Shown piece by piece: positions 5,456-28,338 of a stretch of 44,758 bases of DNA. The notes under the pieces are model-generated. The model was not told where the DNA came from and did not search any database. It saw nothing but the letters and a program-made list of their open reading frames with translations. How positions within the stretch are numbered: the stretch's first letter is position 1; each line of letters opens with the position of its first letter. The position numbers and the translations under genes are program-made. The DNA is from an uncultured Acidobacteriota bacterium (GTDB lineage Bacteria; Acidobacteriota; Vicinamibacteria; Fen-336), in assembly GCA_964568755.1 (NCBI GenBank), contig CAZMRX010000003.1, positions 1 through 44,758 of the forward strand. The letters run 5' to 3'.

Positions 5456-5970
5456 GCTCCTGGATCAAGAGCACCCTGCCGCACCTGGGTCTCGACTTCG
5501 AGCTCAAGGCCGTGCGCGTCATCAACCGCGAGGCGGCCCTGCGCCCGCGCGCGAGCGTGATGCAGTTCGACACCTTCCGCAAGTCGCCAGCCACGACCAC
5601 GGTTCACCACGGTGGGCGCGACTCCTGCTGGGTGAACGTCGTCGATCCAGACTTCCAGGCCGCGGGCAACCTCGGCGGCCAGGCGTTCGCACTGCTCTGC
5701 GCGCTGCTCGAGGACATCCCGCCGGGCCAGGACGGCATGGCGATGATGTGGGGCCTGGACGTGCTCGTGCTCTCGACCGCGGACGTGATCGTCGCGGGCG
5801 ACCTGGGCGCCATCAACTCGAACCTGTCCAACGCCCTCGAGTTCTCTAGCGGCGCCACCACGCTCAACGCCGCGTCGAAGGGCGTGGCCATCGCGCAGGT
5901 AGGTCACGCGACCGGAGGCGTGGCGATCCCGTGCCTGTTCAACGGCTTTCACTTCTGGGCCAAGGTGTGA
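5452..5970 (+). CDS. Decoration-like protein, paralog 4 of 4 (172 aa)
   Basis: I chose ATG 5452 (ATGA overlap with the previous stop) rather than track start 5440. With 5452, LPHLGLDF...AVRVINREA aligns residue-for-residue with paralog 3. The product ends CLFNGFHFWAKV. Confidence 0.7.
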   Translation: MSSWIKSTLPHLGLDFELKAVRVINREAALRPRASVMQFDTFRKSPATTTVHHGGRDSCWVNVVDPDFQAAGNLGGQAFALLCALLEDIPPGQDGMAMMWGLDVLVLSTADVIVAGDLGAINSNLSNALEFSSGATTLNAASKGVAIAQVGHATGGVAIPCLFNGFHFWAKV

Positions 5971-5974
5971 CGCC

Positions 5975-7351
5975 GTGGCCCTCTCGCTCGCACGCATAGC
6001 GGCGCGCATCCGAAAGAGCCTCGGCGGCCAACCGGAGAGCTCGCTGCCGGACATCGTGAACCCGGCCGGCGAGTTCCTCGTGGCGCTGCACCCATGGGGC
6101 TGGCTCGAGCGCCAGCAGGTCGCGCTGGACTTCGTGAAGAACCAGCCCTTCGTGCGCCTGCCCTTCTTCTTCCCGCGCGAGCTGCGCCACGTCACGAGCT
6201 GGCGCTGCTCGAGCAGGAACCGCAGCTTCGCGCCGGGGACGGCCCAGGAGCTCCTCGACGTGCGCTCGGACGAGCCGCCGGCCGGGGCCTTCCGCGTGGT
6301 CGGCGCGATTGCCTTCCAGCGCCCGACGCACCCGAACCTGCTGCTGCGCACAGAGAGCCTGCACGAGGGCGCGCCCACGGGGCCGGTCTGGCTCACGACC
6401 GGGACCATCTCGGTGGCAATCGCCTCGGGCGCGAGCGATCCCCTGCACCCCGTCACGGGCGAGAAGGGCGTGGCGAAGCTGACCGCTTCATCGGGCGGCA
6501 ACTTCTTCCAGGACGTGCCCGCGGCGCGGCTCAAGGACAAGGGCGTCTACTGGCTGAGCGGCTACCTGCGCGCCGACGGCGCGGCCGGGCCGACCCGCAG
6601 CACGGTGCAGCTCGCGGTGCCCGGCTCGGGCACGCTGCGCACTTGTGCGAACATCGTATGGGGAGCCGTCCCGACCATCGTGGCGCGCGTGTCCGCGCCC
6701 GTGAGCGCGGGCGCCGGGCTTCACACCGTCTCGCTTACCCGGCTGCAGGACGGCTGGGTGCGCTTCGCGCTGGCCGTCACGCGGGACATGGTGGTGGACG
6801 CCGGGGTTCTGCGCGTGATCGTGCAGCCCGTGGACCCGGACCTGGCCGAGGTCGCCAAGATCGTCTACGTGACCGGGCTCCAGCTCGAGCTCATCGATCC
6901 CTACTTCCCCGGCGCCCCGGCGCCGGACGGGCCGGGCCCCTACCGGGCGACCATCTCGGACGAGTACCCCTCGGGTGGGGCGCCCGTGCCCGTGCTCGAG
7001 ATCGCGCCCGTGCCCGTGGCCGACGAGCCGGCGGCCCTGGTGGCGACCTTCGCCGGGGGCTGGCCCTACATCGACAACGACTCGGACCAGGTTTCCATCC
7101 CGGACTACCTGAACGGGTACTTCCTCGAGCTCTGCGTCGAGTGGGCCCGCGGGCTCGAGGAGCAAGACCGGGAGCCGCTCTCCGTGCGCCTGGCGAGCCG
7201 CATGGCGCAGGGCAACCCGATGCTCGAGGCGGCCATCATGCGCGACCTGGAGCTTCAGCCCGAGCTCGGGCCGCTGCGCAACGGCGCGATCTACACCCAG
7301 GACGCCTACTCCCACGACTGGGAGTCGGGCTCGAGCGTGGCGGGACCATGA
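5975..7351 (+). CDS. Head-tail adaptor / tail tubular protein A-like (458 aa), putative
   Basis: Occupies the gp11 position of the T7-type order (after the capsid genes, before a very large tail protein). GTG start 4 nt after the previous stop. Carries an internal beta-sandwich-like insertion (next feature). Confidence 0.4.
   Translation: MALSLARIAARIRKSLGGQPESSLPDIVNPAGEFLVALHPWGWLERQQVALDFVKNQPFVRLPFFFPRELRHVTSWRCSSRNRSFAPGTAQELLDVRSDEPPAGAFRVVGAIAFQRPTHPNLLLRTESLHEGAPTGPVWLTTGTISVAIASGASDPLHPVTGEKGVAKLTASSGGNFFQDVPAARLKDKGVYWLSGYLRADGAAGPTRSTVQLAVPGSGTLRTCANIVWGAVPTIVARVSAPVSAGAGLHTVSLTRLQDGWVRFALAVTRDMVVDAGVLRVIVQPVDPDLAEVAKIVYVTGLQLELIDPYFPGAPAPDGPGPYRATISDEYPSGGAPVPVLEIAPVPVADEPAALVATFAGGWPYIDNDSDQVSIPDYLNGYFLELCVEWARGLEEQDREPLSVRLASRMAQGNPMLEAAIMRDLELQPELGPLRNGAIYTQDAYSHDWESGSSVAGP
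6500..6889 (+). other. Jelly-roll / carbohydrate-binding-module-like insertion inside the adaptor-like protein (approximate bounds)
   Basis: The segment NFFQDVPAARLKDKGVYWLSGYLRADG...HTVSLTRLQDGWVRFALAVT...IVYVTGLQLE shows the alternating-strand pattern typical of CBM/galactose-binding-like domains. By eye only. Confidence 0.3.
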
Positions 7352-10300
7352 ACGAGCGCCTGCGCCTGGTGTCGCCCCGCAAGGGCCTCTCCGAGAACTG
7401 GTCGAAGCGTGACCAGGAGCGCGGCACCACACCCGACGAGCTCAACGCGCGCGTGCAGGACCCCGTGACTGGGCGCCTGGTGGACAGCGCGCAGCGCGCC
7501 GGCTTCCGCAAGTTCTCGACGGTCGCCATCGGGGCCTCGAAGGTCGCGGACATGATCGAGGTGCAGCTCGACCAGAAGGCCGTCACCTACTCGGTGGTGG
7601 CCGATGCCTCGATCACGGCCCTGACCGACAAGCCGCCGAGCCACGGGGCCGTGCGCGACCTGGCCATGGACGACGTGGGCAACGTCTACGTCCTCGACGG
7701 GAATCTCGGCTGGGCCAAGTACTCGGCCGACCTCAAGTTCGTGCAGGCCGTCGCGGCCCCGGTGGTCAACCGCGCCGCGGTGCTGCGCGCGCTCGAGGTG
7801 GACGAGTTCCGCAACGTGTACGTGGGCGTGGGTGAGGGTGGCTTGCAGAGCGACGCCTTCCTCGCGCGCTGGAACCCGCGCCTGGACCTCAACGGGAAAG
7901 TCGAGTACCGGCTCACCTGGACGATCAAGCCCAACCGCTTCATCGGCGAGCTGCACTACAGCCGCGGGCTGCTCTACACCGTGCAGAACGACGTGCGCCA
8001 GGGCCGCGCCTTCGCGGTCGTGTACGAGCTCCTGACCACCGAGACGCCGCGCGTGTTCCGGGAGTGGGAGATTCCTTACCCCTCGCGCTGCATCCGCGCG
8101 GCCCCCTCGGGCGCGGTCTACACGAGCTCGCCACCGAACGCGACCCGCGGCGCCAACCCGATCGCGCCCCTGACCTCGAAGGCGCTGGTCGGGGACACCG
8201 TGCAGACCTACGAGGACGCCGGCCTCATCAGCATCTACGCCCGGTACAAGACCGGGCGCCGCGACTCGCTCGAGCTCGACGAAGAGCTCAAGTGCAACCG
8301 CTGGACCTCGATCGCCAAGAACGGCGTGGATCGCTCCTGGTACGTGCCGTACGGCGAGGTCGCGCAGACGAAGACCGCGACGCCCCCGCGCTACGTGGCC
8401 GAGGGCCCGCTGTTCGGGAAGCCGGCGCTCTACTTCAACGGCCTCGACAACTTCATGCGCACGCCCGACAACCCCGGCGTGGTCGCGGGCTTCGCGGACC
8501 AGCAGCAGAGCGCGCTCCCTGGGCACCTGGGCGCGGCCTTCGCCGTCTTCGTCGTGGCGGTCCCCGTGGCGCAGGCGGCCATGAACTGCCTCTTGTCGCA
8601 GAAGACCGACAACACGCTGGGGCAAGTGGACGGCGCGGCCTTCGAGCGCGGGATCATCTTCAACCGCGACGAGGCGGACGGCCTGGGCGCGGTGGCCAGC
8701 GGGCTCGTGTCGATCAGCGACGACGGGGCCCCGACCGCGCCGGCCGCGGTGGGCGCCGGCACGGGCGGCATGCCGCGCTCCATGCGCTTCGATACGAAGA
8801 CGCACAGCGCCGTGGCGGGCGCCGCGCTCCAGCCGGCCGCGGTCCTCATCTCGTGGGTCTGCACGGGCCGGCTCTCGCCGGGCGGCACGATGGAGAGCGT
8901 GTTCCGCGTGAACGGGTGCCCGGTGGATCGCTGGGACTCGCGGCCGGTCGAGCACGCGAAGGGCACCTACCTGGGCGTGTCCCCCAACGTGAACTGGGGC
9001 TTCATGCAGGGGTACGTCTACGAGATCATCGTCCTCAAGCGGCGCTCGAGCGGGGTCGAGGCGGACCTGTTCAGCGACGAGGGCGCGCAGGCGTACGACT
9101 ACCCGGACATCGCCTTCGACGGCACGAGCGACACCGTGCTCGAGAAGATCGAGGGCGCACTCATGCGCGAGTACGGCATCGGGCACTTGCTCGACGGCGG
9201 CTCCGTGGCCAGCTTCCAGCTCTACAAGGTGGGCGACGGAGGCGCGGACTCGACCTACATCCACCCCTACGGCGACGCGACCGGCGCGCTCAAGAAGGGC
9301 CTGGTGCCGTGGAGCGGGACCGCGGGAGCGGACCCGAACCAACTGGCCACGCTCGACGGGATCCTCTGCAAGTGGGAGGCGCAGGACGGGGCCTTCGTGT
9401 GCGCGAACGCGCTCAAGGGCGGCATCGGGTACGGGCTCGAGCTGCGGCCCGACATCAGCTCGGGCCAGACGATCTACAGCGTGGGGCCGAAGAAGACCTC
9501 GGCGCCCACGAACGACGCGACCGCGGTGCAGTTCGCGGACCTCGGGTCGAGCTTCTTCTCGATCGGCGTGGACTTCGTGATGCCGAGCTCGCGCGTGCTG
9601 GTCGATCCCTTCTGCCGGATCGCGGTGGACGACCTGGCCAACCTCTACATCCCCGTGACGCCCGACTCGACCACGGGCGCGAAGTCGCTGTTCGTGCTGG
9701 CGAACGGTCTCGCCACCACGCTGGTCGCCTACCAGACCGACCCGACCATCGGGAGCGCGCAGGGATGCTTCGCTGCGCTGGTGCCGAAGAAGACGCCCAC
9801 CTACCCGCCCAGCGACATCGCCACCGGGCTCCGGCGGGCCGAGGTCGTCTACCTCGGGCGTGCGTCCTCGACGCTCTCGGGCTCGCCCGACAAGGACGGG
9901 CTCTCGCGCGAGCGCCTGGTCTCGGTGGTCGCGCTCTCCGCGGTGCCGCGCGTGACAGCCCTCTACGCGGTGTGCGGGGCCGACCTCAAGACCTTCGCCG
10001 AGCCGGCGACCGTCACGACCGTGGCCGCGGGCGTCTTCGGCGCGAGCGCGAGCATGGTCACCTCCGCGCTGCTGTTCGGCGACGTGTTCTTCACGGACGG
10101 GAACAAGTACATCGTCGCGCACACGCGCTCGGGCGTGGCCGAGGAGTTCAAGGCGTTGAAGGGCAAGCTCGCGCCGCGGCTGCGCGTGTTCGAGAGCTGG
10201 CGCGGGCGCCTGGTCGGCTTCGGCGACCCGGACGACCCCTTCAACTACATCATGTCCGCCAAGGACGACCCCTACGACCACGACACGGGGCGCCCGGATC

Positions 10301-13959: not shown

Positions 13960-16900
13960 GTGGCCGACGAGAAGAAGCTGCGGGTGCTCCGGCCGAAGGG
14001 CCTGGGCGACAAGGCCCTGGACGTGGCCAAGGGCTTCGCGGCCGGGCTGACGCAGCTCCCCGAGGGCGTCGCTGGCGCCGCTGAGGCGGCCGGCGAGCAG
14101 ACCTCGCGCGCGCTCGAGGGCCCCTCGAACCTGCGCGTGCTGCGGCCCGGCCCGTCGGTGAGCTTCCCCGGCTCGCGCCTGGTGGGTGCGGGCGCGCGGC
14201 GCGCGGCCGGCGTGGCCGGCGGGGTGCGCCGGGCGGTGGGCGAGTTCACCCAGGAGAACCTGGCGGGCGAGGGACTCGCCTACCAGACGGGCCAGGGCCT
14301 CGGCTCCTCGGTTGGCATCGGTGGCACGGCGGCGCTGCTCACGACCGTGGGCGTGCCTCCAGTGGCGTCCGTGGCCGCGCTCGGGAGCATGCTCGAGGCG
14401 TCGAGCGCCTACCGAGAAGTGCTGAGGACGGCCAAGGACCCGAAGAGCGAAGCCGCACAGGATGCGGCCTTCGCGGCCTTCGTGGCCGGTGGGGCGATCG
14501 GCACGACCGAGGCGGTGCCTCTTGCCGGCCAGGTCGGCCGCTTCCTCGGGCGCGCGGACCGGGCCACGGGCGGGGCGCTGCGAAAGGCCCTCATCTCGGC
14601 CGGCGCGGAGGCCACCGAGGAGCTCGTCCAGGAGAACGTCCAGAACGTCCTGAGCGACGTGGCGGCCCGGTACGTGAGCAAGCACGACCAGGAGCGCGAC
14701 GTGCTCGGGGGCCTCCTTCAGCGCTGGCAGAGCGGCGAGGCGTGGCTTCCCCCGGTGGTCGCGGGCGGGCTGCTCTCGGCGGTGGCGAGCGCGGGCGAGC
14801 ACCGGCGCTCGACGACCAGCGTGGCGGGGTCAAGAACCGGCATGACCGGCCCGGAAGGGCCCGCCAGCGAGGGCGTGGCACCGAGCTCGACGACCAGCCA
14901 GAGAACGACCACGGAACGACCAGCCAGCGACCAACATGGATCGCGCGTGGATGCCCTTGGATCGATCCTGCCCGTCGAGCCGGCGCGGCCCGCATCCGAG
15001 AACGCGCGCCGGGTCGCGGCGCGCTTCATCGGCGAGCAGGGTGCCCAGGGCGCCGTGGTGCCCCCCCGCACCACGCACCAGCGCCGCGCGGCCGAGTTCT
15101 TCCGCCAGCGCGGCGCCGAGGCGGTCTTCATCGAGAGCCAGTCCGGCGAGCTCGCGGCCCCGGCCGGGTACTCATCGGGGGTGGCCGTCTTCGACGCGAA
15201 CCTCCCAGGCGAGCAGCTCGAGCGCCGGCTGGTGCTGCACGAGGCCCAGCACCACCTGCGGGCCCTGGTGGCCAAGGACGAGGAGACCTTCGCCGGCCTG
15301 GCCGCGGAGCTCGAGGGCGGCCTGCGCACGCTCGACCCCCAGGGGATGAAGAAGATCGAGGCCCGCGTCCGCGAGCAGTACGCGGCCCGCGGGCTCGACG
15401 AAGCCGGGGTCGCGGACGAGGTGGTGTCCAACTACCTCGAGGAGTTCGGGGCCCTGCTGTTCGAGGGCGCGCGCTTCGAGCAGGCCCTCGCGCAGCCCGG
15501 CCTCGGGCGCCGCCTGGTGGACGCGGTGCTGCGCCTCATCAAGAAGGCCGGGATCAAGATCGAGACCCTGACCGAGCGCCGACTGCGGAAGCTGCGCGAC
15601 CAGCTCGCGGAGACCGACATCGAGAAGGGAGCCGACCCCGCGACCATCCCGGCCATCGCCCGCACCGTGCGCAAGGTGTTCGACGAGCTTGCACAGCGGG
15701 CCGTTCCACGTGAAACTTCGCAACAACTTGACGCGCCGATCACCAGTCCGCCGGCCGAAGCCGCAGGCCCGACTCTGCTCGAGGTGCCGCCGGGCCCCGA
15801 AGCGGGGGACCAGCGGGATGTGCTCGGATTGCGTCAACGCGAACAGCCGGGAGTGGCGCCGGGCGCACCTCTGGACGTACCTGCCGCTCGAGGGCCTCAA
15901 GGTCCGCGGGTGCCAGGGGATCGGGGCGGCGCGCGCGGAGTGCGGACACCCCGCGGTGCTCTACCTGGATCCGACGCTGCGTCAGGGGCGGCGCCGCGTG
16001 CGCGTGCGCGTGGTGCCGCGGTGGTTCTGCCCGCAGCACCTCATGCTGCACCTGAGCGAGTCGCTCGGCCGGCTGGCCGAGCCGCTGCTCGACCGGCCGA
16101 GCTGAAAACCCCGGCGGCCGGTGTTCGATCCGCGCCGTCGGGCGACCGACGCGGAAAGACCGAAGCCGCCGGGGCCTCCTCCGCGGAGGTCGAGGTCGCC
16201 ACCTTCGACGAGTACGCGGCGAAGCGCGGCGTGCCGTCCAGCGCGCCATCCTTCCCAGAGGCGCACCGAGCTCCTGGCGGCGTGTCGAAGGCGTCGGCGA
16301 AGGCGATGGCAGGCCGGATCGCCAAGGCGAGCGCGGCGTGGCAGGCGCAGCGCGCCTCCATGCTGCGCGAGTACAAGGCCGCGGTGAAGGCGGGCACGGT
16401 GCGCGCTCCGAGCCGCGCCGAGAGGCTCACGGAGACCGCGCGCGGAGAAGGCCCGGCGGCCGAAGCGGCGCGGCGCCTGCTCGAGAGACAGCGACACACC
16501 CAAGCGCTGAAAGCCCTGCGCGGGCGGCTCGCCGAAGCCAAGAAGTTCGAGCCGAAGTACAACCAGGCCCTCCGGCAAATTGCGCGCAAGGTCGGGACCT
16601 CGCACCCGCCGGCCCTGCCGGGGTTGAAGAAGCTCAAGCGAGCCCTGGCGAAGGTGATGTCCGACTACGCCGGCGACGCGACCAGGATCCGCGACCTGGT
16701 GCGGGGCACGGTCGTCGTGGACACCATCGAGCAGGCCGAGCGCGCGGTGGCTCTGCTGCGCAAGCGCTTCGGGGCGCCCGTCAAGTTCCGCGACTTCTCG
16801 ATGCCGATCCCAGGCACGGGATACCGCGACATCTTCATGCAGTTCGAGCGGGCTGGCGGGCTCGCCTTCGAGGTACAGGTCAACGTGCCGGCGATGCTCG

Positions 16901-19900
16901 AGGCCAAGGAGCGCATGCACGCGCTCTACGAGGAGTGGCAGAACATCCAGCGCAGCGAAGGAGCGCGGTCCGTCGAAGATCAGGCGCGCAGCGACCAGCT
17001 CGAAGCGCAGCAGCGCGAGGTCTACGGGGAGGTTTGGGCGCGGGCCCTTGAAGCCACGCGGGCGAGCTCGACCACTACGAGGTCGCGGAAGGCTTCCTCG
17101 GAGATGGGCACGCCGTCCGAATCGACGGTCGAGCAATCAAAGCGCCGGCCGTCCTCGGAATCCCAGGCCGTGCAGACGGAGGACGCAGACCTCGACACGG
17201 GGAGGTCGTTGCAGTCCCAGAAGGTCGTCCCGGGCGGAAATGAAGAGGGGAGAGGCATCAGCAGTAGCCTAGCCGATGCATCGGCTGTAGCGAAGGAGAA
17301 AAACAAGGGAAAACCAGTAGAAATCCAGGCGCGACTCGGGCGCCAGGCCACGGTCGAGCTCGCGGACGGAGACTCCCTGCCGGTCACCTACGCCCTGGTC
17401 GAGGCGGAAGCCCTTGTCCCGAGCCACGACGCGCGCCGCGGCTTCGCCCCGAACGAGGGCGGCGACCTGAACGAGCGCCCTTACAACGATCCCGTCGAGG
17501 GCGCCCCCATGCGCGAGACCGTGCGCGGGATCGCGGACCGGCCCAAGGTCTCGCTGCTCACGACCGACACGCCTTCGCCGGTGGACGGCCCCCCGATCGT
17601 GACCACGACCGGCGTGGTGCTGGGCGGGAACGCCCGGACCATGGGGATGCAGCTCGCCTACTCCCGCGCGGACGCCCCCGCAGCGGCCCTGCGCGCGGGC
17701 ATGGTCGAGGCGGCGGCCCGGTTCGGCATCGACCCCCAGGGGATGGCAAACCCCGTCCTGGTGCGCGTGGTGGAGGCTGGACGCGAGGGCAAGCGCGGCG
17801 AGCTGTCGCGGGTCCTCAACGAGTCGCTGACCACCGGCAAGGGCGCCACGACCGAAGCGGTCTCGCGCGGGCAGAAGGTCACGCCCGAGGTGGCCACCCA
17901 GGTCGCGCGGCTGCTCGGCGACGGGACCCTGCGCGAGGCCCTCGGCGAGGCCAGCAAGGCGAACCAGGTGGCGCGGCTGATGATCCAGGCCGGCGCGCTG
18001 ACACAGCGCGACCTGGCGGAGCTCTTCAACCCGACCACCGGGATTCCGACCGCGGCCGGCAAGCAGGTGATCGAGGACGCGCTGCTCGGCTCGGTGATCC
18101 AGGACGTGCGCACCCTCTCGGAGACGCCGCCCTCCACGCGCAACGTCCTGCTGCGCTCCCTACCGTCGCTGGTGACGCTGCGCGGGCGCGTGGTGGGCTT
18201 CGACACGACCATGCGCAACGTGGCCCAGGGCGCGGCTGAGGTGGCGCAGACGGGCGCCCCGCTCAAGGACGTGCTCGGCCAGCAGGTCATGCCGGGGATC
18301 GACGTTGGCTGGAAGGGCGACGAGCTCGCGGTGGGGATCCTGCGCTCGATCCTGAGCGAGAAGCCCACGCGCATCTCCGAGCGCTTCGCCGGGCTCGCGC
18401 AGCGCGCGCGCGACATGGCGGCGGGCCAGGCGTCCTTCATCCCCGAGGATAACCTGCCGATCCGCCAGCAGCTCGAGAGCGAGTTCCGCTTCGCGCTGGC
18501 CAAGGGGGCCCGCACGCGCCCGCTCATCGAGCGGCTCGAGCGCGCCGAGACCGCAGGCGTCGGCGTGCTGGTAAGGCCCTCAAGCCCGGCCGAGCGCGCC
18601 TTCCTCGAGCACGCGGAGGAAGCCGGGCTCGCCGTGCAGGTGAAGGGCGGCGCGTGGCGCCTCGAGGCGGCGGACGTGCCCTGGGCCCTGGGCCTCGACC
18701 GAATCGAGCGCATCCTGCGCGCCAAGCGCGCGCGTGGGGTAGAGTTCGTCCATGCCCCAGGATCCCAAGCGCCGACCCTCGAAAGGCTACGCGGCGGGCC
18801 CCTCGCCCGAAGAACTGCGCGTGGACCCGCGGCATCGCCCGGTCTCGGTCTCGCGCATCAGCCGCCCGCGGCCCTCCGCACCTTCATCCAAGAAACGGTA
18901 GTCTGCGAGGGCCCCGAGCTCGCCATCGAGCCGGGGCACATCCACTCGACCCTGCCGGCGGACTACAGCGAGCCGACGGTGCCCCCGTTTGCGCTCGCTG
19001 GCCAGCGCCTCGGTCCCGACGAGATCCTCGCGCGCGTTCCGGCGTCGCCGATCATGGAACGCCTGTTCGTGGTGCAGGTCGCCAGGGACAGCACGGTGTT
19101 GTCGAGCTCGATCTTCAGCGTGGGATCCACAGCCGCGGCGCTCGTGCCGTCCACGCGCGAGCAGATGGAAGCGATGCTCGTCCCTCCGATGTCGGGCGAT
19201 CGGGTGATGTTCATCCACAACCACCCGAGCGGGGACCCGACCGTGAGCGTCGAAGACAGCATCTCGACCAACACGATGCGCCGAGCGGTGGACGCTTGGG
19301 CCCGCAGCGTCTCGGTGCCTTCGTACTTCGCGGTGGTCGGCAAAGACGCGGCGAACCACTACACGCGCACGCAAACGGTGCCCGCGACGGTCAAGACGCT
19401 CTACCCGCTCGAGCGCTTCCGTAGGCTTCTGTTCCCGCGCGGCCCCGAGCAGCTGCGGGCCATCGCGCAGCGTATCACACCGACCAACTCGAAGGCTGTC
19501 CTCGGCATCATGTTCACGGGCGACCAGCTGCGCGCCGTTGTGGCGTGGGACCGGATCCCGTCCACCGATCAGCTCCACGAGCTGATGATGGCCTACGGAG
19601 GGCACGACCTGTTCCTTGGGTCGCACGACGAAGAGACCGCGGGCCTCCTCTGGGAAACGCAGCTCCCGCCCTACGTGCGCGACGTGTTCACGCCCCAGGG
19701 CTACAGCGGGCCGCGGCGGAGCACGGGAGAACACCTCCACGACGTGCTGCTCGAATACGATCCGCGCGCTGATGCGGTGCGCTCGACGGCCAAGGCCGGC
19801 GTGCCCAAGAAGGGTGACACGCCGGGCCAGGCGATCATGTTCTCGCTGGGCTCCTCCTGGCGCCGCCAGTGGACATCCGAGGGGAACCTCCCGCGCCCCT

Positions 19901-22377
19901 TCTTCGACGCGAAGATCGCACGGGACGGCTGGATCAACGCCCACTTGCAGCGCTCCCGCGACCTCGACGTGGACCTGCGCCGGGCGATCAAGGCCGCATG
20001 GGGCCGCCCCACGCCCGCCCAGGTCGAGCAGATCGACCAGGCGTTCAAGTCGCGCGTGCAGCTCGCGGCCCTGCCGGAGGAACTCCGCGATCCCGTGCGC
20101 GCCATGCGCGAGCACGTCAAGGAGCTCTCGATGCACCTCATCGACAGCGGTGCGATCGAGGGCGAGCTCGTGCCCACGGTGCTCGCCAACCTCGACTTCT
20201 ACGCGACGCGCAGCTACCGCGTGTTCGACGACCCCAAGTGGGCCGAGCGCGTGCCTCTCGAGGTGCGCAACCGGGCGAAGGCCCTGCTGCGGATGTCGCG
20301 GCCGAAGGACACGGACAACCAGATCGAGCGCTACATCAACGCCCTGCTATACGAGGGCAAGGCCGCGCAGAACCCCATCGCCGTGCTCGCGCGCGGCGGC
20401 AAGCTGGGCTCGAAGGACCTGTCGATCACGAAGCGCCGCGAGGCGATCGCGCCCGAAATCCGCGCCCTGTTCGGCGAGTACACCGATGCGCGCGTCAACT
20501 ACGCCCGCTCGGTGGCCAAGATGGCTTTCCTCGTGGGAAACCACCAGTTCCTCGGCGAGGTCAAGGCCAAGGGCCTCGGGAAGTTCATCTGGCAGAAGGA
20601 CGACCCCAACGTCCCACCGGAGGCGAAGGCGACGCTCGCGGCCGACGAGACCAGCGTGCTCTTCCCGCTCAACGGGCTGGTGACCACGACCGACGTGGAT
20701 CAGGCGTTCCGCGACCACGCCGAGCGCGAGCAACTCCCGGCCTGGGCGCAGGCGTGGCTCACGCTCAACGCCGTGGCCAAGTACGGCAAAACCGTCGGGT
20801 CGGTGATGACCCAACTGCGCAACTGGACCGGCAACGTGCCCTTCGCCATGGCGCAGGGCCACTGGCGTGCGCATCGGCTGGTGGACGGGGTGCGCGCCGT
20901 GGCGACCACCTTCCACCGGATGAACGACCAGACCTGGCGCGACTACTACCGGAACGCTCTCCGCATGGGGGTGATCCACGAGAGCGCGAACGCGGGCGAG
21001 CTCCGAGCGGTGCTCGAGGACGTGTGGAGCGGGAGCCAGTCCATCGCACACCCGGAGAGTGCGCGCGGGCGCGTGCGCCGCGGCCTCGAGTTCCTCACGC
21101 GCGTGTACTCCGCGGGCGACGACTTCTGGAAGGTCTACGCCTGGGAGAACGAGAAGGCGCGCTACCGCAAGGCCGGCGTCTTCGCGTCCGAGGCTGAGCT
21201 CGAGCGCGAGACCGCGCGCATGGTCCGCAACACGTACCCGACCTACTCGCTCGTGCCCCGCGCCGTGCGCAAGCTGCGACGCTTCCCGCTGCTCGGCACC
21301 TTCGTCTCCTTCCCCTGGGAGGTCATGCGCACGACCAAGAACACGCTGGCGCTGATGGCGAGCGAGCTCAAGAGCTCCAACCGGCGCGTGCGGTTCATCG
21401 GCGCGCAGCGACTCGTGGGCTCCCTGGCGGCGGCCTCCTGGTCGGGCCTGCTGGCGACCTACGCGCGCCACCTGCTCGGCATGACGGACGACGAGGACGA
21501 GGAGGCGCGCGAGCTGCTCCCGGTGTGGAACAAGAACTCGGACATCCTCTGGCTCGGCCGCGACGAGAAGGGCAACCGGACCTTCGTGGACCTGTCCTAC
21601 ACGGACCCGTACAAGTACCTCAAGACCCCGCTGATGGCGCTCTTGCGCGGCGAGGACTGGCAGGAGAAGCTGACGCGCAGCGTGGGCGCGCTGCTCGAGC
21701 CCTTCATGTCCGAGGAGCTGGCGACCAAGGCGGCCATCGACCTCGCGCGCAACGCGACCAGCGAGGGCCGGCGCATCTGGAACCCGGCCGCGCCGCCCGA
21801 GGACCAGCTCGCGGACGTGGTGGCTCACATCGGCAAGGCGCTCGAACCGGGCACGCTCACGAGCCTGCGGCGGATCTACCTCGGCACGCAGGGCAAGGTG
21901 GTCGGGACGAAGGCGTACGACCCCCGCATCGAGACTCTGGCGATGACCACGGGCGTGCGCGTCTCCTCGCTCGACCTGGCGCAGGGGGTCTCCTACAAGG
22001 CGCGTGACTTCGAAGCCGCGTGGGGTGACGCCACGCGCATGCTGACGGGCGTGGTCGGGCACCGTGGCCAGGTGTCCGACGCCGAGGTCGAGGAGGCGTA
22101 CCGCGACTCCGAGCTCGTGCGCAGGAAGGCGTGGGATCGGCTCCAGAAGGCAATCAGCGCCGCGCGCGCCCTCGGGCTCGTGGATCGTGAGCTCCTCGCG
22201 CGCCTGGAACCAAACCTTGGGAAGGCGCGCGCGCTCGAAGCACTGCGCGGCAGGTACGCCGGCTACAGCCCCAGCTCCTCGTTCCTCTCGATCCAGTCTC
22301 GCGGCGCCAGCGCGTCCGAGCGGCGCGAGTTCTTGCGTCGCGGCCACTTGGTTCGCAGGTTGGCTCTATCCCGATGA
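13960..22377 (+). CDS. Giant multi-domain ('polyvalent') internal virion / ejection protein (2805 aa), gp16-position
   Basis: Single open frame of 8.4 kb with strong third-position G/C, except across ~15.69-16.10 kb and, more weakly, 18.75-18.90 kb. The N-terminal ~290 aa contain Gly/Ala-rich hydrophobic segments (GIGGTAALLTTVGVPPVASVAALGSML; AFAAFVAGGAIG; LPPVVAGGLLSAVASAG). Behind them lie HExxH, RelA/SpoT-like, ParB-like and RadC/JAB modules and a ~850-aa C-terminal region. Confidence 0.8.
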   Translation: MADEKKLRVLRPKGLGDKALDVAKGFAAGLTQLPEGVAGAAEAAGEQTSRALEGPSNLRVLRPGPSVSFPGSRLVGAGARRAAGVAGGVRRAVGEFTQENLAGEGLAYQTGQGLGSSVGIGGTAALLTTVGVPPVASVAALGSMLEASSAYREVLRTAKDPKSEAAQDAAFAAFVAGGAIGTTEAVPLAGQVGRFLGRADRATGGALRKALISAGAEATEELVQENVQNVLSDVAARYVSKHDQERDVLGGLLQRWQSGEAWLPPVVAGGLLSAVASAGEHRRSTTSVAGSRTGMTGPEGPASEGVAPSSTTSQRTTTERPASDQHGSRVDALGSILPVEPARPASENARRVAARFIGEQGAQGAVVPPRTTHQRRAAEFFRQRGAEAVFIESQSGELAAPAGYSSGVAVFDANLPGEQLERRLVLHEAQHHLRALVAKDEETFAGLAAELEGGLRTLDPQGMKKIEARVREQYAARGLDEAGVADEVVSNYLEEFGALLFEGARFEQALAQPGLGRRLVDAVLRLIKKAGIKIETLTERRLRKLRDQLAETDIEKGADPATIPAIARTVRKVFDELAQRAVPRETSQQLDAPITSPPAEAAGPTLLEVPPGPEAGDQRDVLGLRQREQPGVAPGAPLDVPAARGPQGPRVPGDRGGARGVRTPRGALPGSDAASGAAPRARARGAAVVLPAAPHAAPERVARPAGRAAARPAELKTPAAGVRSAPSGDRRGKTEAAGASSAEVEVATFDEYAAKRGVPSSAPSFPEAHRAPGGVSKASAKAMAGRIAKASAAWQAQRASMLREYKAAVKAGTVRAPSRAERLTETARGEGPAAEAARRLLERQRHTQALKALRGRLAEAKKFEPKYNQALRQIARKVGTSHPPALPGLKKLKRALAKVMSDYAGDATRIRDLVRGTVVVDTIEQAERAVALLRKRFGAPVKFRDFSMPIPGTGYRDIFMQFERAGGLAFEVQVNVPAMLEAKERMHALYEEWQNIQRSEGARSVEDQARSDQLEAQQREVYGEVWARALEATRASSTTTRSRKASSEMGTPSESTVEQSKRRPSSESQAVQTEDADLDTGRSLQSQKVVPGGNEEGRGISSSLADASAVAKEKNKGKPVEIQARLGRQATVELADGDSLPVTYALVEAEALVPSHDARRGFAPNEGGDLNERPYNDPVEGAPMRETVRGIADRPKVSLLTTDTPSPVDGPPIVTTTGVVLGGNARTMGMQLAYSRADAPAAALRAGMVEAAARFGIDPQGMANPVLVRVVEAGREGKRGELSRVLNESLTTGKGATTEAVSRGQKVTPEVATQVARLLGDGTLREALGEASKANQVARLMIQAGALTQRDLAELFNPTTGIPTAAGKQVIEDALLGSVIQDVRTLSETPPSTRNVLLRSLPSLVTLRGRVVGFDTTMRNVAQGAAEVAQTGAPLKDVLGQQVMPGIDVGWKGDELAVGILRSILSEKPTRISERFAGLAQRARDMAAGQASFIPEDNLPIRQQLESEFRFALAKGARTRPLIERLERAETAGVGVLVRPSSPAERAFLEHAEEAGLAVQVKGGAWRLEAADVPWALGLDRIERILRAKRARGVEFVHAPGSQAPTLERLRGGPLARRTARGPAASPGLGLAHQPPAALRTFIQETVVCEGPELAIEPGHIHSTLPADYSEPTVPPFALAGQRLGPDEILARVPASPIMERLFVVQVARDSTVLSSSIFSVGSTAAALVPSTREQMEAMLVPPMSGDRVMFIHNHPSGDPTVSVEDSISTNTMRRAVDAWARSVSVPSYFAVVGKDAANHYTRTQTVPATVKTLYPLERFRRLLFPRGPEQLRAIAQRITPTNSKAVLGIMFTGDQLRAVVAWDRIPSTDQLHELMMAYGGHDLFLGSHDEETAGLLWETQLPPYVRDVFTPQGYSGPRRSTGEHLHDVLLEYDPRADAVRSTAKAGVPKKGDTPGQAIMFSLGSSWRRQWTSEGNLPRPFFDAKIARDGWINAHLQRSRDLDVDLRRAIKAAWGRPTPAQVEQIDQAFKSRVQLAALPEELRDPVRAMREHVKELSMHLIDSGAIEGELVPTVLANLDFYATRSYRVFDDPKWAERVPLEVRNRAKALLRMSRPKDTDNQIERYINALLYEGKAAQNPIAVLARGGKLGSKDLSITKRREAIAPEIRALFGEYTDARVNYARSVAKMAFLVGNHQFLGEVKAKGLGKFIWQKDDPNVPPEAKATLAADETSVLFPLNGLVTTTDVDQAFRDHAEREQLPAWAQAWLTLNAVAKYGKTVGSVMTQLRNWTGNVPFAMAQGHWRAHRLVDGVRAVATTFHRMNDQTWRDYYRNALRMGVIHESANAGELRAVLEDVWSGSQSIAHPESARGRVRRGLEFLTRVYSAGDDFWKVYAWENEKARYRKAGVFASEAELERETARMVRNTYPTYSLVPRAVRKLRRFPLLGTFVSFPWEVMRTTKNTLALMASELKSSNRRVRFIGAQRLVGSLAAASWSGLLATYARHLLGMTDDEDEEARELLPVWNKNSDILWLGRDEKGNRTFVDLSYTDPYKYLKTPLMALLRGEDWQEKLTRSVGALLEPFMSEELATKAAIDLARNATSEGRRIWNPAAPPEDQLADVVAHIGKALEPGTLTSLRRIYLGTQGKVVGTKAYDPRIETLAMTTGVRVSSLDLAQGVSYKARDFEAAWGDATRMLTGVVGHRGQVSDAEVEEAYRDSELVRRKAWDRLQKAISAARALGLVDRELLARLEPNLGKARALEALRGRYAGYSPSSSFLSIQSRGASASERREFLRRGHLVRRLALSR
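15082..15489 (+). other. Possible zincin-like metallopeptidase module (HExxH at 15238-15252)
   Basis: The motif VLHEAQHHL (H427-E-A-Q-H431) lies in a helical context. This is a motif-only call; a short HExxH can occur by chance. Confidence 0.3.
15689..16105 (+). CDS. Nested +1-frame ORF encoding a Cys-rich zinc-ribbon protein (up to 138 aa; alternative ATG at 15818 gives 95 aa)
   Basis: Between ~15.78 and 16.10 kb nearly every third position of this frame is G/C (4 exceptions in the last 96 codons by my count). Over the same span the giant-ORF frame drops to roughly 60% and encodes Pro/Gly/Arg-rich low-complexity sequence. The product contains CSRC-x11-CSDC plus further C/H pairs (ECGH.., FCPQH). 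Start codon uncertain (TTG 15689, GTG 15710, TTG 15728 or ATG 15818). Confidence 0.6.
   Translation: MHSGPFHVKLRNNLTRRSPVRRPKPQARLCSRCRRAPKRGTSGMCSDCVNANSREWRRAHLWTYLPLEGLKVRGCQGIGAARAECGHPAVLYLDPTLRQGRRRVRVRVVPRWFCPQHLMLHLSESLGRLAEPLLDRPS
16612..16944 (+). other. RelA/SpoT-homologue (small alarmone synthetase / toxSAS-like) nucleotidyltransferase domain
   Basis: Residues ~885-995 read LPGLKKLKRALAKV..IRDLVRGTVVVD..PGTGYRDIFMQF..LAFEVQVNVP..RMHALYEE. This reproduces, in order and spacing, the basic patch, the D-x-x-[GR]-x-x-V strand, the G-Y-R-x-x motif, the E-[IV]-Q-[IV] motif and the H-x-x-Y-[KE] motif of RSH synthetase domains. Confidence 0.6.
17362..17784 (+). other. ParB/sulfiredoxin-like domain (tentative)
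   Basis: The segment ..YALVEAEALVPSHD..NERPYND..IADRPKVSLL..DGPPIVTTTGVVLGGNARTMGMQLAY.. resembles the ParB-nuclease core, with GGNAR in place of the usual GxHR. Confidence 0.3.
19027..19359 (+). other. RadC-like JAB/MPN domain
   Basis: Contains the classic RadC signature FIHNHPSGDPTVSVEDSISTNTMRRA (HNHPSG at 19216 onward). Confidence 0.8.
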
Positions 22378-22673
22378 ATGGAAGGCACGGCATGTCCGAT
22401 CGCTCGATTGACCTCTGGAAGATGGTAGGCACGGGCCTCTTCGGCGCGTGTCTCTCCGGCGTGGTGTTCTTCGTGCGCGAGGGCAATACCCACGCGACGC
22501 ACGACGAGCTGCGCGCCGCCTTGATCGAGGCCAAGGACTTTGCCGAGAAGGCGGGCCCCTACGTGCGCGACAAGGGAACGCTGTTCACCCGGCTGGATTC
22601 GATCGACGCGAACCTCGCGGACATCAAGGCGAAGCTCGACCGAGGAGAGCGCGCCGACCGGGGGGAGCGATGA
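22374..22673 (+). CDS. Membrane protein with one N-terminal TM helix and a coiled-coil tail (99 aa); holin- or i-spanin-like
   Basis: ATG overlaps the giant-gene stop (ATGA). The TM segment is MVGTGLFGACLSGVVFFV, followed by a charged helical region (..LADIKAKLDRGE..). Confidence 0.5.
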   Translation: MNGRHGMSDRSIDLWKMVGTGLFGACLSGVVFFVREGNTHATHDELRAALIEAKDFAEKAGPYVRDKGTLFTRLDSIDANLADIKAKLDRGERADRGER

Positions 22674-22870
22674 ACCTCCGCGGGGTTGAGGCGCTCTTCG
22701 CCAGCCGCAAGGGGACCGTGTTCGGCGGAACCTCAGCGATCGTGCTCGGCCTGATGGGGGACGGCGCCCTGCCGGTCCCTCTCGGGTCCAAGATGCTCGT
22801 CTTGTTGGCGTGCGTCCACATGCTTGGGCAGGGCATTGCGGACTTCGGTAGAGGTCCAGAGAGACAGTGA
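22670..22870 (+). CDS. Small two-TM membrane protein (66 aa); holin-like
   Basis: The ATG at 22670 (ATGA overlap) lies inside track ORF 22448-22870. Hydrophobic segments: GGTSAIVLGLMG and MLVLLACVHMLG. Confidence 0.5.
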   Translation: MNLRGVEALFASRKGTVFGGTSAIVLGLMGDGALPVPLGSKMLVLLACVHMLGQGIADFGRGPERQ

Positions 22871-23322
22871 TGGGAAACAGAATCCGAATCCTGGCGGCAT
22901 GCCTCGCGCTCGCGGGCTGCTCAGGGCCTGGAAACCACGATGTTGATGTCGAGTTCATCCACGGGATCGTGGCCGACACGAAGATCGCGGTGGAGCAGAC
23001 GGCGCTCGCGCTCGTCCCGGACGACCCGAAGCTGGCGGCCCGGCTCGGCGAGCTCGTGGTCAAGCTCGATTTGGTCGAGACGCAACTCGCCAACGCGATT
23101 GCCACCGGGGGCTCCCCGCAGGACGCCGTGGCCGCGATCGACACGGCGCTGGGCATGACGGCTTCGCTGGCCGAATTCTTCTCGATGGACCCCGCCAAGC
23201 AGGCCCGCGTTCGAGCTCTCGCCTACCTCGCGCAGGGGGCGCTGCGGATCATCCGCCGCCGCGTTGCGGATGACGGACAGCCAGCGGGAGGTTCTCCACC
23301 GGGGTCAACCCCTCCGGGCTGA
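22867..23322 (+). CDS. Lipoprotein (151 aa); o-spanin-like or exclusion lipoprotein
   Basis: The signal peptide carries a lipobox (ILAACLALAG-C). The start overlaps the previous stop. The 3' end overlaps the convergent gene 23249-23746 by 74 nt, and its third-position G/C decays there. Confidence 0.6.
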   Translation: MMGNRIRILAACLALAGCSGPGNHDVDVEFIHGIVADTKIAVEQTALALVPDDPKLAARLGELVVKLDLVETQLANAIATGGSPQDAVAAIDTALGMTASLAEFFSMDPAKQARVRALAYLAQGALRIIRRRVADDGQPAGGSPPGSTPPG

Positions 23323-25998: not shown

Positions 25999-26494
25999 GC
26001 GCGCGCCGGAAATGCACGCGTACGCGCACGTCGGCGTCCTCGAGCTTCACGCCCCACGGGACCAGGATGGCGAGCGGCTGCGGAAAGCGCACCACGATCG
26101 GCAAGGCCAGGGCCGCGTTGGCCGCGGGCGCGAGCACCTCATAGATGCTCGTGGCGTCGTCGGCCGTGCGGATGTCGATCTTCTTGGCCGCGGCGTCCAG
26201 CTTGTCGATGACCAGCCCGTCGATGAGCGTGTACTCGTCGGACGCGAGCAGGCTCTCGGCCGCGATGGCCGTGGTCTCGCCGTAGCCGCCCAGCGGGTAG
26301 GCGATGGCCGTGCCTCCGGTGAAGGTGGCCCAGCAGGCGAGGTCGCTGGGCAAGACGATCGCGGGCGCCGCTGCGGGGTTCTCGTCACGGCCCGCGGGGT
26401 CGTAGCCCGTCAGGGTCGTGCCGAGCCCCAGCGAGATGGCGGGATCGAATGCGTCGGCGGGGATGACAACTCGGGGTTCCGGGGTTGCTTGCAT
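25991..26494 (-). CDS. Hypothetical protein (167 aa) between TerL and portal
   Basis: Start overlaps the TerL stop (ATGA), and its 3' end overlaps the portal start by 8 nt. Normal composition. Confidence 0.65.
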   Translation of the reverse strand: MQATPEPRVVIPADAFDPAISLGLGTTLTGYDPAGRDENPAAAPAIVLPSDLACWATFTGGTAIAYPLGGYGETTAIAAESLLASDEYTLIDGLVIDKLDAAAKKIDIRTADDATSIYEVLAPAANAALALPIVVRFPQPLAILVPWGVKLEDADVRVRVHFRRAHA

Positions 26495-28104
26495 CAGGCG
26501 GCCTCGTCGAAGCGGACATCACCATGGGCCAGCACTTGGCCCATGGAGCCGGCCTCGAATCTCGGCTTCTCGGTGGGGTCCGTCAAGTCCCTGCCCCAGG
26601 CGAACATCGCGGCGTACCGCATGGCGTCACAACCGTGGTCCTCGACCAGCGGATTCGACTCCTCCTTGATGGCCTGGCCGTCCTTGGACGCCTTCCAGAC
26701 GTACCCGGGAATCTCGTCCTCGGTACAGGTCGGAAGCCTCGAGGCCAGGATCTCCTGGTCCAGGTACTCCATCGCGTCCGAGCACAGGTAGAGCCGCGGG
26801 GCAAGCAGGGGTGCGGTCTCGCCCGTCTTCTCGGCGATGGCCCGCAGGGCCGCGCTCGGGTCCAGGCCCCAGCGCACCATGTCCCAGCCGGCTTCTCGCG
26901 CGTTCTGCGCCTCGATGACGATCCGCGCCGAGCTCCGGCCGCGCCACTCCATGATCCGGTCGTTGAGGGCCTCGATCAGATCCGGGCGCGCGGGGTCCGC
27001 CACGACCTGGCGCAGGCTGTAGCGGCGATCGAACTGGGCCACGTGCTCGGCCCACCACTCGAGCTGCTTCTCCTTCGCGTAGACCTCGTGGACGCGGTAC
27101 ATGCGCTCGAAGGCCCCGAGCACGCCCCACACCTGGAGCACGCCGGCCTTGCGGTGACCCCAGTCCATCGAGCCGAAGTACCAGTCCAGCTTGAGCTCCC
27201 CGCGGCGCTCGCCGTCCAGGTGGCGCAGGTGCTTGTCGGCCTTGAGCATCGCGGCCGGCGCGTCCCACTTGCGGTAGGTCATGTGTCGCGCGCGGTCGAA
27301 CTCGGGCCAGATTTGCCCCTCGCTCCCACACCACTCACCATCGAGCAGGCGCCGCTTTCGGGCCCCGGTGAGACCTCCGATCTTCATCAGGTACGCGGCC
27401 CCGATGGCGCTCGGGCGGTTGTTCGCGCGATCCCAGAAGACCGGGTTGTCGTCGTGGCGCGTGATGATGCGCGCCATCTGGAGCTGCCCCGGGCGCGGCT
27501 TCGGCACGAGTCCGCGCAGGATCTCGGGCACCTTCATCTCGCGCTTAGCTCGGCGATTCAGCCAATGCGAGATGTCGTCCGGGTTGGTGTCCGCGATGGC
27601 CTGATTCCAGGGCATGCGGAAGCTCCGGTTGCGCGTGAGGAGCCCTTCCCAATCGTCTTCCGTGATCTCGCGCGCCTCGAACACCACGATGATGTCGAAC
27701 TGGGTCGAAAAAAACCTCGACACCTTGTCCAGGCCGCCACAGACGATGTGGCTGGAGCCCGAGTAGGTGCGACCGTTGTAGGTCTTCGTCGCGTACGGGA
27801 ACGTGTAGCTGCGCCGGTTCTCGGGCGCCGCCGTGCCTGTCACGCACGGATGCTCGGGCCCGCCGGGGAGCACCTCCTGCTCCCAGGTCACCAGCACCGA
27901 TTCGGTCAGAGAGGCGCGCGTCTTGCGCACGAACAGGACGCGGATCCCGGGGTACGTCTCGCACAGGCCGAGCACGTACTGGAGAATCGAGCGCGTCTTG
28001 CCGGTGCCGACCGGGCCCTCAACGAGGACCTCGGAGTCTCGGCAATAGAAGAGCTGGGTGTGGCGCCCCGTTACTCGGAAGGGGTGAGCAACGAGGGCGC
28101 CCAC
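26494..28104 (-). CDS. terL: Terminase large subunit (536 aa)
   Basis: Walker A is EGPVGTGKT and Walker B-like is FDIIVVFEARE. The C-terminal RNaseH-like nuclease motifs are GSMDWG ... EDHGCDAMRYA. Confidence 0.9.
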   Translation of the reverse strand: MGALVAHPFRVTGRHTQLFYCRDSEVLVEGPVGTGKTRSILQYVLGLCETYPGIRVLFVRKTRASLTESVLVTWEQEVLPGGPEHPCVTGTAAPENRRSYTFPYATKTYNGRTYSGSSHIVCGGLDKVSRFFSTQFDIIVVFEAREITEDDWEGLLTRNRSFRMPWNQAIADTNPDDISHWLNRRAKREMKVPEILRGLVPKPRPGQLQMARIITRHDDNPVFWDRANNRPSAIGAAYLMKIGGLTGARKRRLLDGEWCGSEGQIWPEFDRARHMTYRKWDAPAAMLKADKHLRHLDGERRGELKLDWYFGSMDWGHRKAGVLQVWGVLGAFERMYRVHEVYAKEKQLEWWAEHVAQFDRRYSLRQVVADPARPDLIEALNDRIMEWRGRSSARIVIEAQNAREAGWDMVRWGLDPSAALRAIAEKTGETAPLLAPRLYLCSDAMEYLDQEILASRLPTCTEDEIPGYVWKASKDGQAIKEESNPLVEDHGCDAMRYAAMFAWGRDLTDPTEKPRFEAGSMGQVLAHGDVRFDEAA

Positions 28105-28119: not shown

Positions 28120-28338
28120 CTACTTGCGCTCGTGGCGCGCGATCGAGGCGTTGGCCCAAAAGACCGCCTCTTCGAGCGCCGTCACGGCGAGGGACTGCTC
28201 GCGGCTCTCCGCGGTCTGCTCGATCAGGAACCGCGCGAACTCCAGCGCCTTCGAACGGATGGCCTCGTAGCGCACGGGCTGGTCCCCGAAGGGCGGATGG
28301 TAGACGAAGCGCTTTTGCAGGTCGCCAGGGGTAATCAC
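28120..28338 (-). CDS. Small two-helix protein (72 aa) immediately upstream of terL; possible Acb2/Tad1-hairpin-like nucleotide sponge
   Basis: The sequence ..FVYHPPFGDQPVRYEAIRSKALEFARFLIEQTAESREQSLAVTALEEAVFWANASIARHE fits a widespread phage helix-turn-helix-hairpin family (Y.PP..Q..Y..IR....A..I....SRE.SLA.T.LEEA..WANA.IAR). I recall this family as being annotated Acb2/Tad1 hairpin. Not verified. Confidence 0.6.
   Translation of the reverse strand: MITPGDLQKRFVYHPPFGDQPVRYEAIRSKALEFARFLIEQTAESREQSLAVTALEEAVFWANASIARHERK

Follow-up and report, generated by a model that had tools for sequence, protein, structure and literature searches.

A Tas1/Apk1-like synthetase domain of intact appearance within a giant phage protein of the polyvalent type

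Contig CAZMRX010000003.1 of assembly GCA_964568755.1, assigned to an uncultured Acidobacteriota bacterium and analysed here over its whole length of 44,758 nucleotides (the window), is a phage sequence encoding a giant protein of 2,805 amino acids (aa), within which lies a synthetase domain of the RSH type whose resemblance to known members extends well beyond chance. The closest solved relative of this domain is Tas1, and it looks catalytically intact, judging from the conservation of its motifs. The interpretation favoured here, with moderate rather than strong confidence, is that the domain is a catalytically intact Tas1/Apk1-like 'exported synthetase' pyrophosphokinase, built as a single module into a polyvalent phage protein and active after co-ejection with the DNA. 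The gene, the domain and three of its key residues are located as follows:

13960-22377, forward strand: giant gene encoding the polyvalent virion-type protein of 2,805 aa, a single open reading frame (ORF), several segments of which have in-frame homologues
16498-17085, forward strand: Tas1/Apk1-like RSH synthetase domain (aa ~847-1042), defined by sequence, profile and model
16693-16695, forward strand: key residue D912
16822-16824, forward strand: key residue Y955
16870-16872, forward strand: key residue E971

An initial annotation of this DNA had proposed a RelA/SpoT-type, toxSAS-like domain at 16612-16944 on the forward strand, an interval corresponding exactly in translation to residues 885-995 of the giant ORF; it lies within the domain, the full extent of which is larger. 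When the sequences of the PDB were searched by phmmer with aa 818-1047, the best match was Tas1 (6ox6_A; E 1.8e-9), to which the domain is ~24% identical. The Pfam RelA_SpoT profile (PF04607) aligns to the domain over positions 4-108 of 113, with an E value of 8e-4 to 1.2e-3 and a score of 19.5-20.1 bits. Relatives of the domain are abundant: when 1.84 billion cluster representatives were scanned exhaustively with HMMER, 1,812 of them matched with E<=1e-3, and with E<=1e-10 there were 527; a family alignment and profile were constructed from 45 of the relatives. When compared with the PDB, this profile found Tas1 (8.6e-27), SaEAS (8vx3; 1e-5), RelA (6e-4), Rel (0.012) and RelP (0.074). There is also a weak match to NCBIfam XopAD, attributable to Apk1-like domains being cargo on the type III secretion system (T3SS; XopAD) among other carriers, and the matches in BFVD are large phage proteins with a synthetase domain, annotated as RelA/SpoT, DdrB-like or ART-PolyVal. 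PADLOC gave no match, a search of IMG/VR with the domain sequence found no close relative and the domain alignment offered no conserved stretch suited to such a search, and a megablast search of cultured phages with the giant gene found no match.

The predicted structure points in the same direction. An AlphaFold2 (AF2) model of aa 847-1042, built from an independent alignment of 26 sequences, has a predicted local distance difference test (pLDDT) score of 90.8 and a predicted template modelling (pTM) score of 0.82, and both the model and its Foldseek matches exhibit the SYNTH fold, comprising a mixed beta-sheet, a basic helix after beta1 and the G-loop. Of the top 50 structures that Foldseek retrieved from the PDB with this model, every one is an RSH synthetase (E 5e-9 to 3e-4), with Tas1 (5.4e-9) at the head and SaEAS, RelP, RelQ, Rel, CapRel, SpoT and RelA after it. 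Of the two checks that the initial annotation had suggested, the one with Foldseek came out in its favour; in the one with the RelA_SpoT profile, 18 of the 45 family members match singly (best E 3.3e-8) and the window sequence alone remains below the gathering score. The fold is likewise of the RSH/toxSAS type that it had named, but the nearest relatives are Tas1/Apk1-like exported synthetases, and not RelQ/RelP or CapRel.

Within the 45-member alignment 11 residues are invariant, and all are kept in the window (K890, R894, K898, D912, R915, G954, Y955, D957, E971, Q973 and Y990), as are 10 near-invariant positions, giving 21 of 21 conserved residues in total. The invariant residues occupy the stretch of residues ~885-995 in which the RSH motifs, including the G-loop Tyr and the E-x-Q, had originally been recognised, and the residues of Syn1 to Syn5, including H987..Y990, are all present and invariant or near-invariant across the family. 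Their roles as basic donor-site residues, Mg-binding Asp, stacking Arg, G-loop Tyr and E-x-Q were assigned by analogy with FaRel2 and RelP. In alignments, the R-x-T of Syn2 (RGT) and the E-x-Q-V-N of Syn4 agree with the RNT and EIQVN of Tas1. Syn3 reads GYRDIF in the window and GYRD-x-(K/N) in the family consensus, with the D invariant, and R956, beside the G-loop Tyr, is near-invariant. A separate conserved motif, ..R-x-N-x-SSE-x-x-(A/S)-P, directly follows the synthetase in many relatives, before a low-complexity linker; the same position in the window (17056-17085, aa ~1033-1042; alignment columns ~215-227) is occupied by RASSTTTRS, and this tail may represent a processing or linker signal.

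Tas1, the Apk1 toxin and (p)ppApp synthetase of a type VI secretion system (T6SS) in Pseudomonas aeruginosa (6OX6), is the closest solved relative by both sequence and fold. Both it and the window domain consist of a monomer-type SYNTH domain with a helical extension, share Syn1 K..R..K, Syn2 D..R-x-T and Syn4 E-x-Q-V-N, and are cargo on a delivery module. Tas1 differs in its PAAR/T6SS N-terminus and in the neighbouring immunity gene for Tis1, whereas the window domain has a carrier of phage virion type, no immunity gene and a Syn3 of GYRD rather than GYSGVN; Pfam detects no PAAR or Rhs domain in the giant protein. SaEAS, the second-best solved relative, VpEAS and AaEAS similarly join an Apk1-like SYNTH domain to export or delivery signals, but these are exported from bacteria through Sec or a secretion system of type VII (T7SS), make (p)ppGpp or both products, and are far less similar to the window domain than is Tas1. 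The toxSAS modules FaRel, FaRel2, PhRel and CapRel have the same RSH fold and are also toxic effectors; however, they are small stand-alone toxins used in defence, whose antitoxin (pZFD, Tis1-like or small alarmone hydrolase (SAH)) lies beside them or is fused to them, whereas in the window the synthetase is part of a phage structural gene and no antitoxin was found.

The remainder of the giant protein comprises the following further features:

14299-14871, forward strand: N-terminal conserved region, Gly/Ala-rich and hydrophobic (aa 114-304), found by BLASTP and read as an anchor
15238-15252, forward strand: HExxH motif HEAQH (aa 427-431), possibly marking a zincin-type processing peptidase; motif only
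15730-16359, forward strand: Ala/Pro/Gly/Arg-rich low-complexity linker (aa 591-800), recognised by composition; the G+C content at third codon positions (GC3) falls to 0.70
17365-17772, forward strand: DdrB-like ParB superfamily domain (aa 1136-1271), Pfam PF18763, E 1.2e-16, 61 bits, gathering score 27.6
19057-19293, forward strand: RadC-like JAB domain (aa 1700-1778), Pfam PF04002, E 1.3e-6 to 2.4e-6, 27.9-28.7 bits, gathering score 22.1
19747-22356, forward strand: C-terminal all-alpha module of ~850 aa (aa 1930-2799), proposed to act in virion incorporation or as a carrier, on the basis of phrog, tblastn and model

The C-terminal module matches phrog_22602, 'virion structural protein', with an E value of 3.9e-46, and by tblastn matches gp123 of Cellulophaga phage phi18:3, the record of which bases its annotation on tandem mass spectrometry (MS/MS) of virions, as well as proteins of Pseudoalteromonas phage Y3 and Pelagibacter phage HTVC027P; the Pseudoalteromonas phage match is annotated as an ADP-ribosyltransferase and the Pelagibacter podophage match as a structural protein. 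The virion-type nature originally ascribed to the giant protein is thereby supported, through homology to a protein verified in virions by MS/MS. Homologues of the module number 131 at E<=1e-10, being mostly proteins of 1,000-1,500 aa, a few of which carry Pfam ART-PolyVal; their alignment has 25 invariant columns, and the synthetase is present in none of 120 among the matches listed (131 in total). An AF2 model of the module is all-helical (pLDDT 82), and a structural search of the PDB with this model gave no significant match. A known ejection-protein fold was considered and rejected, as the T7 core protein appeared only at E 0.73 with a TM score of 0.06. As judged from the model, the module is a structurally uncharacterised family of virion proteins that is widespread. 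Because it matches nothing in the PDB, the argument for packaging is one of homology to the MS-verified protein, by which the giant protein is probably packed into the virion.

The closest syntenic relative, P0177, encoded on a 46 kb contig, aligns to aa 114-304 and to aa 1968-2770 of the giant protein (32% identity between the N-terminal region and its own aa 114-283 by BLASTP; E 3e-20), but has only ~170 aa between these shared ends where the window protein has ~1,660 aa. The synthetase therefore lies, with the HExxH motif, ParB and RadC, in a much enlarged cassette at the variable centre of this conserved scaffold of virion proteins. The N-terminal region is also found in four other relatives (P0188, P0208, P0211 and P0223). 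The synthetase is followed by a further low-complexity linker (aa 1041-1135), then by the DdrB-like ParB domain, a region also matched by ~26 of 149 synthetase-domain relatives, and by the RadC-like JAB domain, in which the HxHx7SxxD motif is intact at aa 1753. The same order of Apk, DdrB-ParB and RadC domains recurs in P0015, an unrelated protein of 2,837 aa ending in LPD38, the RadC/JAB domain of which occupies aa 1495-1603, while another relative, P0021, carries LPD22. GC3 is 0.88-0.94 in every folded segment, such that the central cassette is neither a recent arrival nor a chimera. An assembly chimera behind the giant ORF was specifically rejected, as two in-frame junctions would be needed, GC3 is uniform and the Apk-ParB-RadC order recurs elsewhere. 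Neither MPTase-PolyVal nor LPD domains were detected by Pfam in the window protein, PDB sequence searches with its N-terminal 647 aa and C-terminal 876 aa found nothing, and a Pfam scan of aa 331-600 was empty, such that the peptidase assignment stays at the level of the motif. With several unrelated effector domains (synthetase, DdrB-ParB and RadC-JAB) in one phage ORF of 2,805 aa, the protein fits the polyvalent class, and not Apk1 or Apk2.

Neither beside the giant gene, as first reported, nor anywhere else in the window was an antitoxin-like gene found. Pfam identified no HD-domain hydrolase among all plausible ORFs, and a phmmer comparison of the small ORFs with the PDB, in which the Tis1 chain of 6OX6 and chains of SAH-type hydrolases should be represented, gave no match, whether Tis1-like or SAH-like; a fast-evolving small immunity protein in the window cannot fully be excluded. 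By contrast, such genes are found beside relatives. In the cultured, 94 kb Bordetella phage PHB04, positions 7071-10031 encode a portal protein, a 493 aa protein annotated as 'hypothetical' and ending in a synthetase domain of this family (33-38% identity), a 69 aa ORF, a SpoT-type HD hydrolase and a Ser/Thr phosphatase, matching the toxin, immunity and Aph layout of Apk2 (PMC10083569, PMC12226406). Similarly, downstream of each of two free-standing synthetase relatives there are ORFs of ~75 aa, homologous to one another, with a Y-x-x-GTRP motif (6775-6996 in L008; 2181-2411 and 2417-2638 in L009), with pairwise E values of 7e-9 to 2e-6, and of 5e-19 between the L009 copies; on sequence grounds these form a candidate immunity family that has no Pfam annotation. 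Homologues of the PHB04 hydrolase and its small ORF are absent from the window, and a profile of the GTRP family has no match there. As PHB04 and the free-standing relatives have such neighbours, the synthetase family behaves as a toxin needing neutralisation when standing alone, and the giant protein, having no immunity partner, would therefore keep its enzyme latent within the precursor up to the point of unfolding, ejection or processing.

The favoured interpretation may accordingly be phrased as a sequence of steps. The C-terminal module would bring one or a few copies of the protein into the capsid, from which they would exit together with the DNA. The domains might then come apart at the flexible linkers of low complexity (aa 591-800 and 1041-1135), perhaps through cleavage by a peptidase that the protein itself carries (HExxH or JAB). 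The synthetase would then move pyrophosphate from ATP onto the 3'-OH of a purine nucleotide, most likely forming (p)ppApp, with (p)ppGpp or both as possible products; ATP would be drained, and purine synthesis, transcription and translation perturbed, before any phage gene is expressed. It is the similarity to Tas1, with the Tas1-like Syn2 (R-x-T) and Syn4 (E-x-Q-V-N), that favours (p)ppApp and ATP depletion over other outcomes.

A number of observations weigh against this interpretation. The window sequence by itself scores under the RelA_SpoT gathering score of 27. Its Syn3 of GYRD is unlike the GY-x-G-x-N of Tas1 and SaEAS, and does not match the G-x-N signature of Apk1 and Apk2 (GYSGVN in Tas1; GxN in Apk2, PMC12226406); since Apk1-like enzymes with other products also exist, and their specificity cannot be read from sequence (PMC12691689), the product is not established. 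Packaging is inferred from the homology to gp123 and the position of the gene in the structural operon; ejection into the cell is a further inference, and the model of the C-terminal module shows no significant resemblance to any known ejection protein. The HExxH peptidase is assigned by its motif. Finally, the lack of an immunity gene leaves to be explained how an enzyme that drains ATP would stay silent during DNA packaging, which itself depends on ATP.

The most probable alternative, although it seems unlikely, is a synthetase of the VpEAS/AaEAS type making (p)ppGpp only, which would put the cell that has just been infected into a state resembling the stringent response, with no (p)ppApp-associated depletion of ATP. 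Apk1-like homologues making exclusively (p)ppGpp are known and are toxic in the cytoplasm, as are others making both products (PMC12691689), the GYRD of Syn3 departs from the Apk signature, and an alarmone-like response is what Iyer et al. proposed in 2017 (PMC5512222). On the other hand, the similarity is strongest by far to Tas1, at 97.5 bits with the family profile as compared to 28.7 bits for the promiscuous SaEAS, and the Syn2 and Syn4 signatures are Tas1-like. Swaps of Syn motifs have left specificity unchanged (PMC12226406), and because these attempts at recoding failed, the motifs are poor predictors of specificity in either direction.

It is more doubtful that the domain is a tRNA 3'-CCA pyrophosphokinase of the CapRel, FaRel2 or PhRel type, halting host translation at entry with no free alarmones. 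CapRel (7ztb, 9erv) is among the Foldseek matches, with E values of 4e-5 to 2e-4, the G-loop Tyr and donor-site residues are common to all toxSAS enzymes, and Syn3 is unlike that of the proven (p)ppApp makers. However, the CapRel alignments have a root-mean-square deviation of >10 A, the family profile that finds Tas1, SaEAS, RelA, Rel and RelP in the PDB finds neither CapRel nor FaRel2 at E<=1, and PADLOC has no match; furthermore, the model has just one long helix, and not an N-terminal tRNA-anchoring extension folded onto the core, while the near-invariant R956 would fit a nucleotide-phosphate pocket. The hydrolase neighbouring the PHB04 synthetase does not discriminate between the two activities, as SAH-type hydrolases neutralise both kinds of product (PMC11782079). 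On balance, a tRNA-directed activity is less likely than the synthesis of a free alarmone.

A similarly improbable suggestion is that the GYRD clade, which extends to ~1,800 clusters of mostly giant proteins from metagenomic phages and in which an Asp of the G-loop motif on the acceptor side does not vary, uses an acceptor unlike that of any characterised RSH enzyme. It might, for instance, 3'-pyrophosphorylate or consume the nucleotide substrates or signals of the cyclic-oligonucleotide-based antiphage signalling system (CBASS), of Thoeris or of type III CRISPR systems, and be ejected with no immunity partner as an anti-defence enzyme of the first minutes. As a separate observation, the same genome has a gene for an Acb2/Tad1-like cyclic-nucleotide sponge.

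Finally, the protein might be undelivered, acting only late in the producing cell, for instance in the arrest of host metabolism, or the domain might be carried along without activity in a protein whose role is solely structural. This would accommodate the conditional status of packaging and ejection and the C-terminal module's lack of resemblance to ejection proteins, and a missing immunity gene would be irrelevant in a cell already doomed; yet it seems improbable, given that all family-conserved catalytic residues are kept, that a GC3 of 0.90 points to selection acting over a long stay in this genome, that a homologous C-terminal module is MS/MS-verified in virions and that other effectors of the entry type, ART-PolyVal among them, are found on this scaffold, while the position of the gene in a late structural operon, where an unrestrained ATP drain would harm packaging, would argue for latency until ejection.

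Delivery of such a domain with the phage DNA had initially been thought undescribed, but this is not the case. Polyvalent proteins were defined by Iyer et al. 2017 (PMC5512222), who counted RelA/SpoT and DdrB-ParB as domains exclusive to the phage type, observed the two together in prophages of non-pylori Helicobacter and proposed that the RelA/SpoT domain sets off an alarmone-like response upon entry; in keeping with this, a tblastn search with the family consensus finds phages of Helicobacter ailurogastricus. The window protein thus shares with these the concept, the partner domains and the proposed role on entry, but differs in its phi18:3-gp123-like C-terminal carrier and in the lack of detectable Pfam MPTase-PolyVal and LPD domains. 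RelA-like MuF toxins have likewise been proposed to be head-loaded and co-injected (Jamet 2017, PMC5576092), and the MuF-fused Apk2 has been found to make (p)ppApp, with IapK/Tis1-like and Aph1 proteins providing immunity, although its injection was left as an open question (Ahmad 2023, PMC10083569; Paulet 2025, PMC12226406). More broadly, Apk1-like domains are modular cargo on Sec, T3SS, type IV secretion system, T6SS, T7SS, extracellular contractile injection system and MuF carriers (Ahmad et al. 2025, PMC12691689). A precedent for a capsid-carried enzyme injected to modify the host before gene expression is T4 Alt, an ADP-ribosyltransferase (cited in PMC5512222), which differs from the window protein in both enzyme class and carrier, while scaffold relatives of the window protein carry ART-PolyVal.

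The Apk2 of temperate phages is similar in being a phage Tas1-like synthetase on a head- or virion-associated carrier, and co-injection is hypothesised for both. As published, however, it has two domains, an N-terminal MuF and a C-terminal toxin, and is followed by iapK/tis1-like and often aph1 genes, whereas the window protein is 2,805 aa long, has its synthetase in the middle among other effectors, is encoded at the end of the structural block and lacks immunity genes; no Pfam match to Phage_Mu_F (MuF, SPP1 gp7) was found in it. A study by Bartoli in 2023 is reportedly a further source on Apk2 of temperate phages, listed with those of Jamet 2017, Ahmad 2023 and Paulet 2025.

The phage-polyvalent RelA/SpoT arrangement, already predicted in 2017 and partly characterised since, is no new principle. 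What is new here is modest in extent: another scaffold as the carrier, the occurrence of RadC/JAB in a polyvalent protein of phage origin, the absence of detectable immunity, with the built-in latency of the precursor that this implies, and a large GYRD clade. The Tas1-like synthetase emerges as swappable cargo at the variable centre of a virion-protein scaffold that is widespread, related to phi18:3 gp123 and found in marine and soil phages, and an uncharacterised clade of 1,812 representative clusters is defined by its distinctive G-loop motif. Ahmad 2023 (PMC10083569) explicitly raised the question of the actual injection of phage-borne alarmone synthetases and of their action in the first minutes of infection.

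The remainder of the ~44.7 kb phage sequence encodes a large terminase (TerL), an ExoVIII-like/PDDEXK nuclease and structural genes. The giant gene is the last of the structural block of large genes on the forward strand, directly before holin- and spanin-like genes, whereas the putative portal and TerL genes are on the opposite strand and not beside it:

22374-22673, forward strand: 99 aa ORF with one transmembrane helix, holin-like by sequence; no Pfam or PDB match
22867-23322, forward strand: 151 aa ORF with a lipoprotein signal (lipobox LAGC), spanin-like by sequence; no significant Pfam match
26494-28101, reverse strand: large terminase, phrog_2, 9e-34

From their sequences, the two ORFs downstream of the giant gene look like a lysis cassette. 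By tblastn, the terminase is only ~30% identical to those of actinophages. The ends of the window share an exact 55 bp repeat (1-55 and within 44696-44758) and related contigs are 45-46 kb in size, such that the window is probably a complete genome of ~44.7 kb. The 63 bp end sequence recurs internally at 44088-44150, ~608 bp upstream, where it spans a gene stop and the MSDEQDDPRA start of the next gene; as this is a repeated gene-boundary element, circular closure is uncertain. A scan for tRNA genes found none in the window.

Several other genes were noted. Immediately upstream of the terminase gene, a 72 aa ORF (28120-28338, reverse strand) matches Pfam Acb2_Tad1_hairpin (PF24729; E 1.2e-16, 61 bits, gathering score 27), and its product is likely to be an anti-CBASS/anti-Thoeris cyclic-nucleotide sponge. 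Three tandem paralogous genes (4461-5970, forward strand) in the structural block encode proteins of 166, 164 and 176 aa, with pairwise E values of 1e-9 to 1e-15. An ORF at ~40223-40630 on the reverse strand matches Cpn10/GroES (PF00166; E 1.5e-9) and may represent a phage-encoded co-chaperonin, and a pentapeptide-repeat protein (44114-44725, reverse strand; PF00805, E 1.6e-10) has homologues in two related IMG/VR contigs (L004 and L007).

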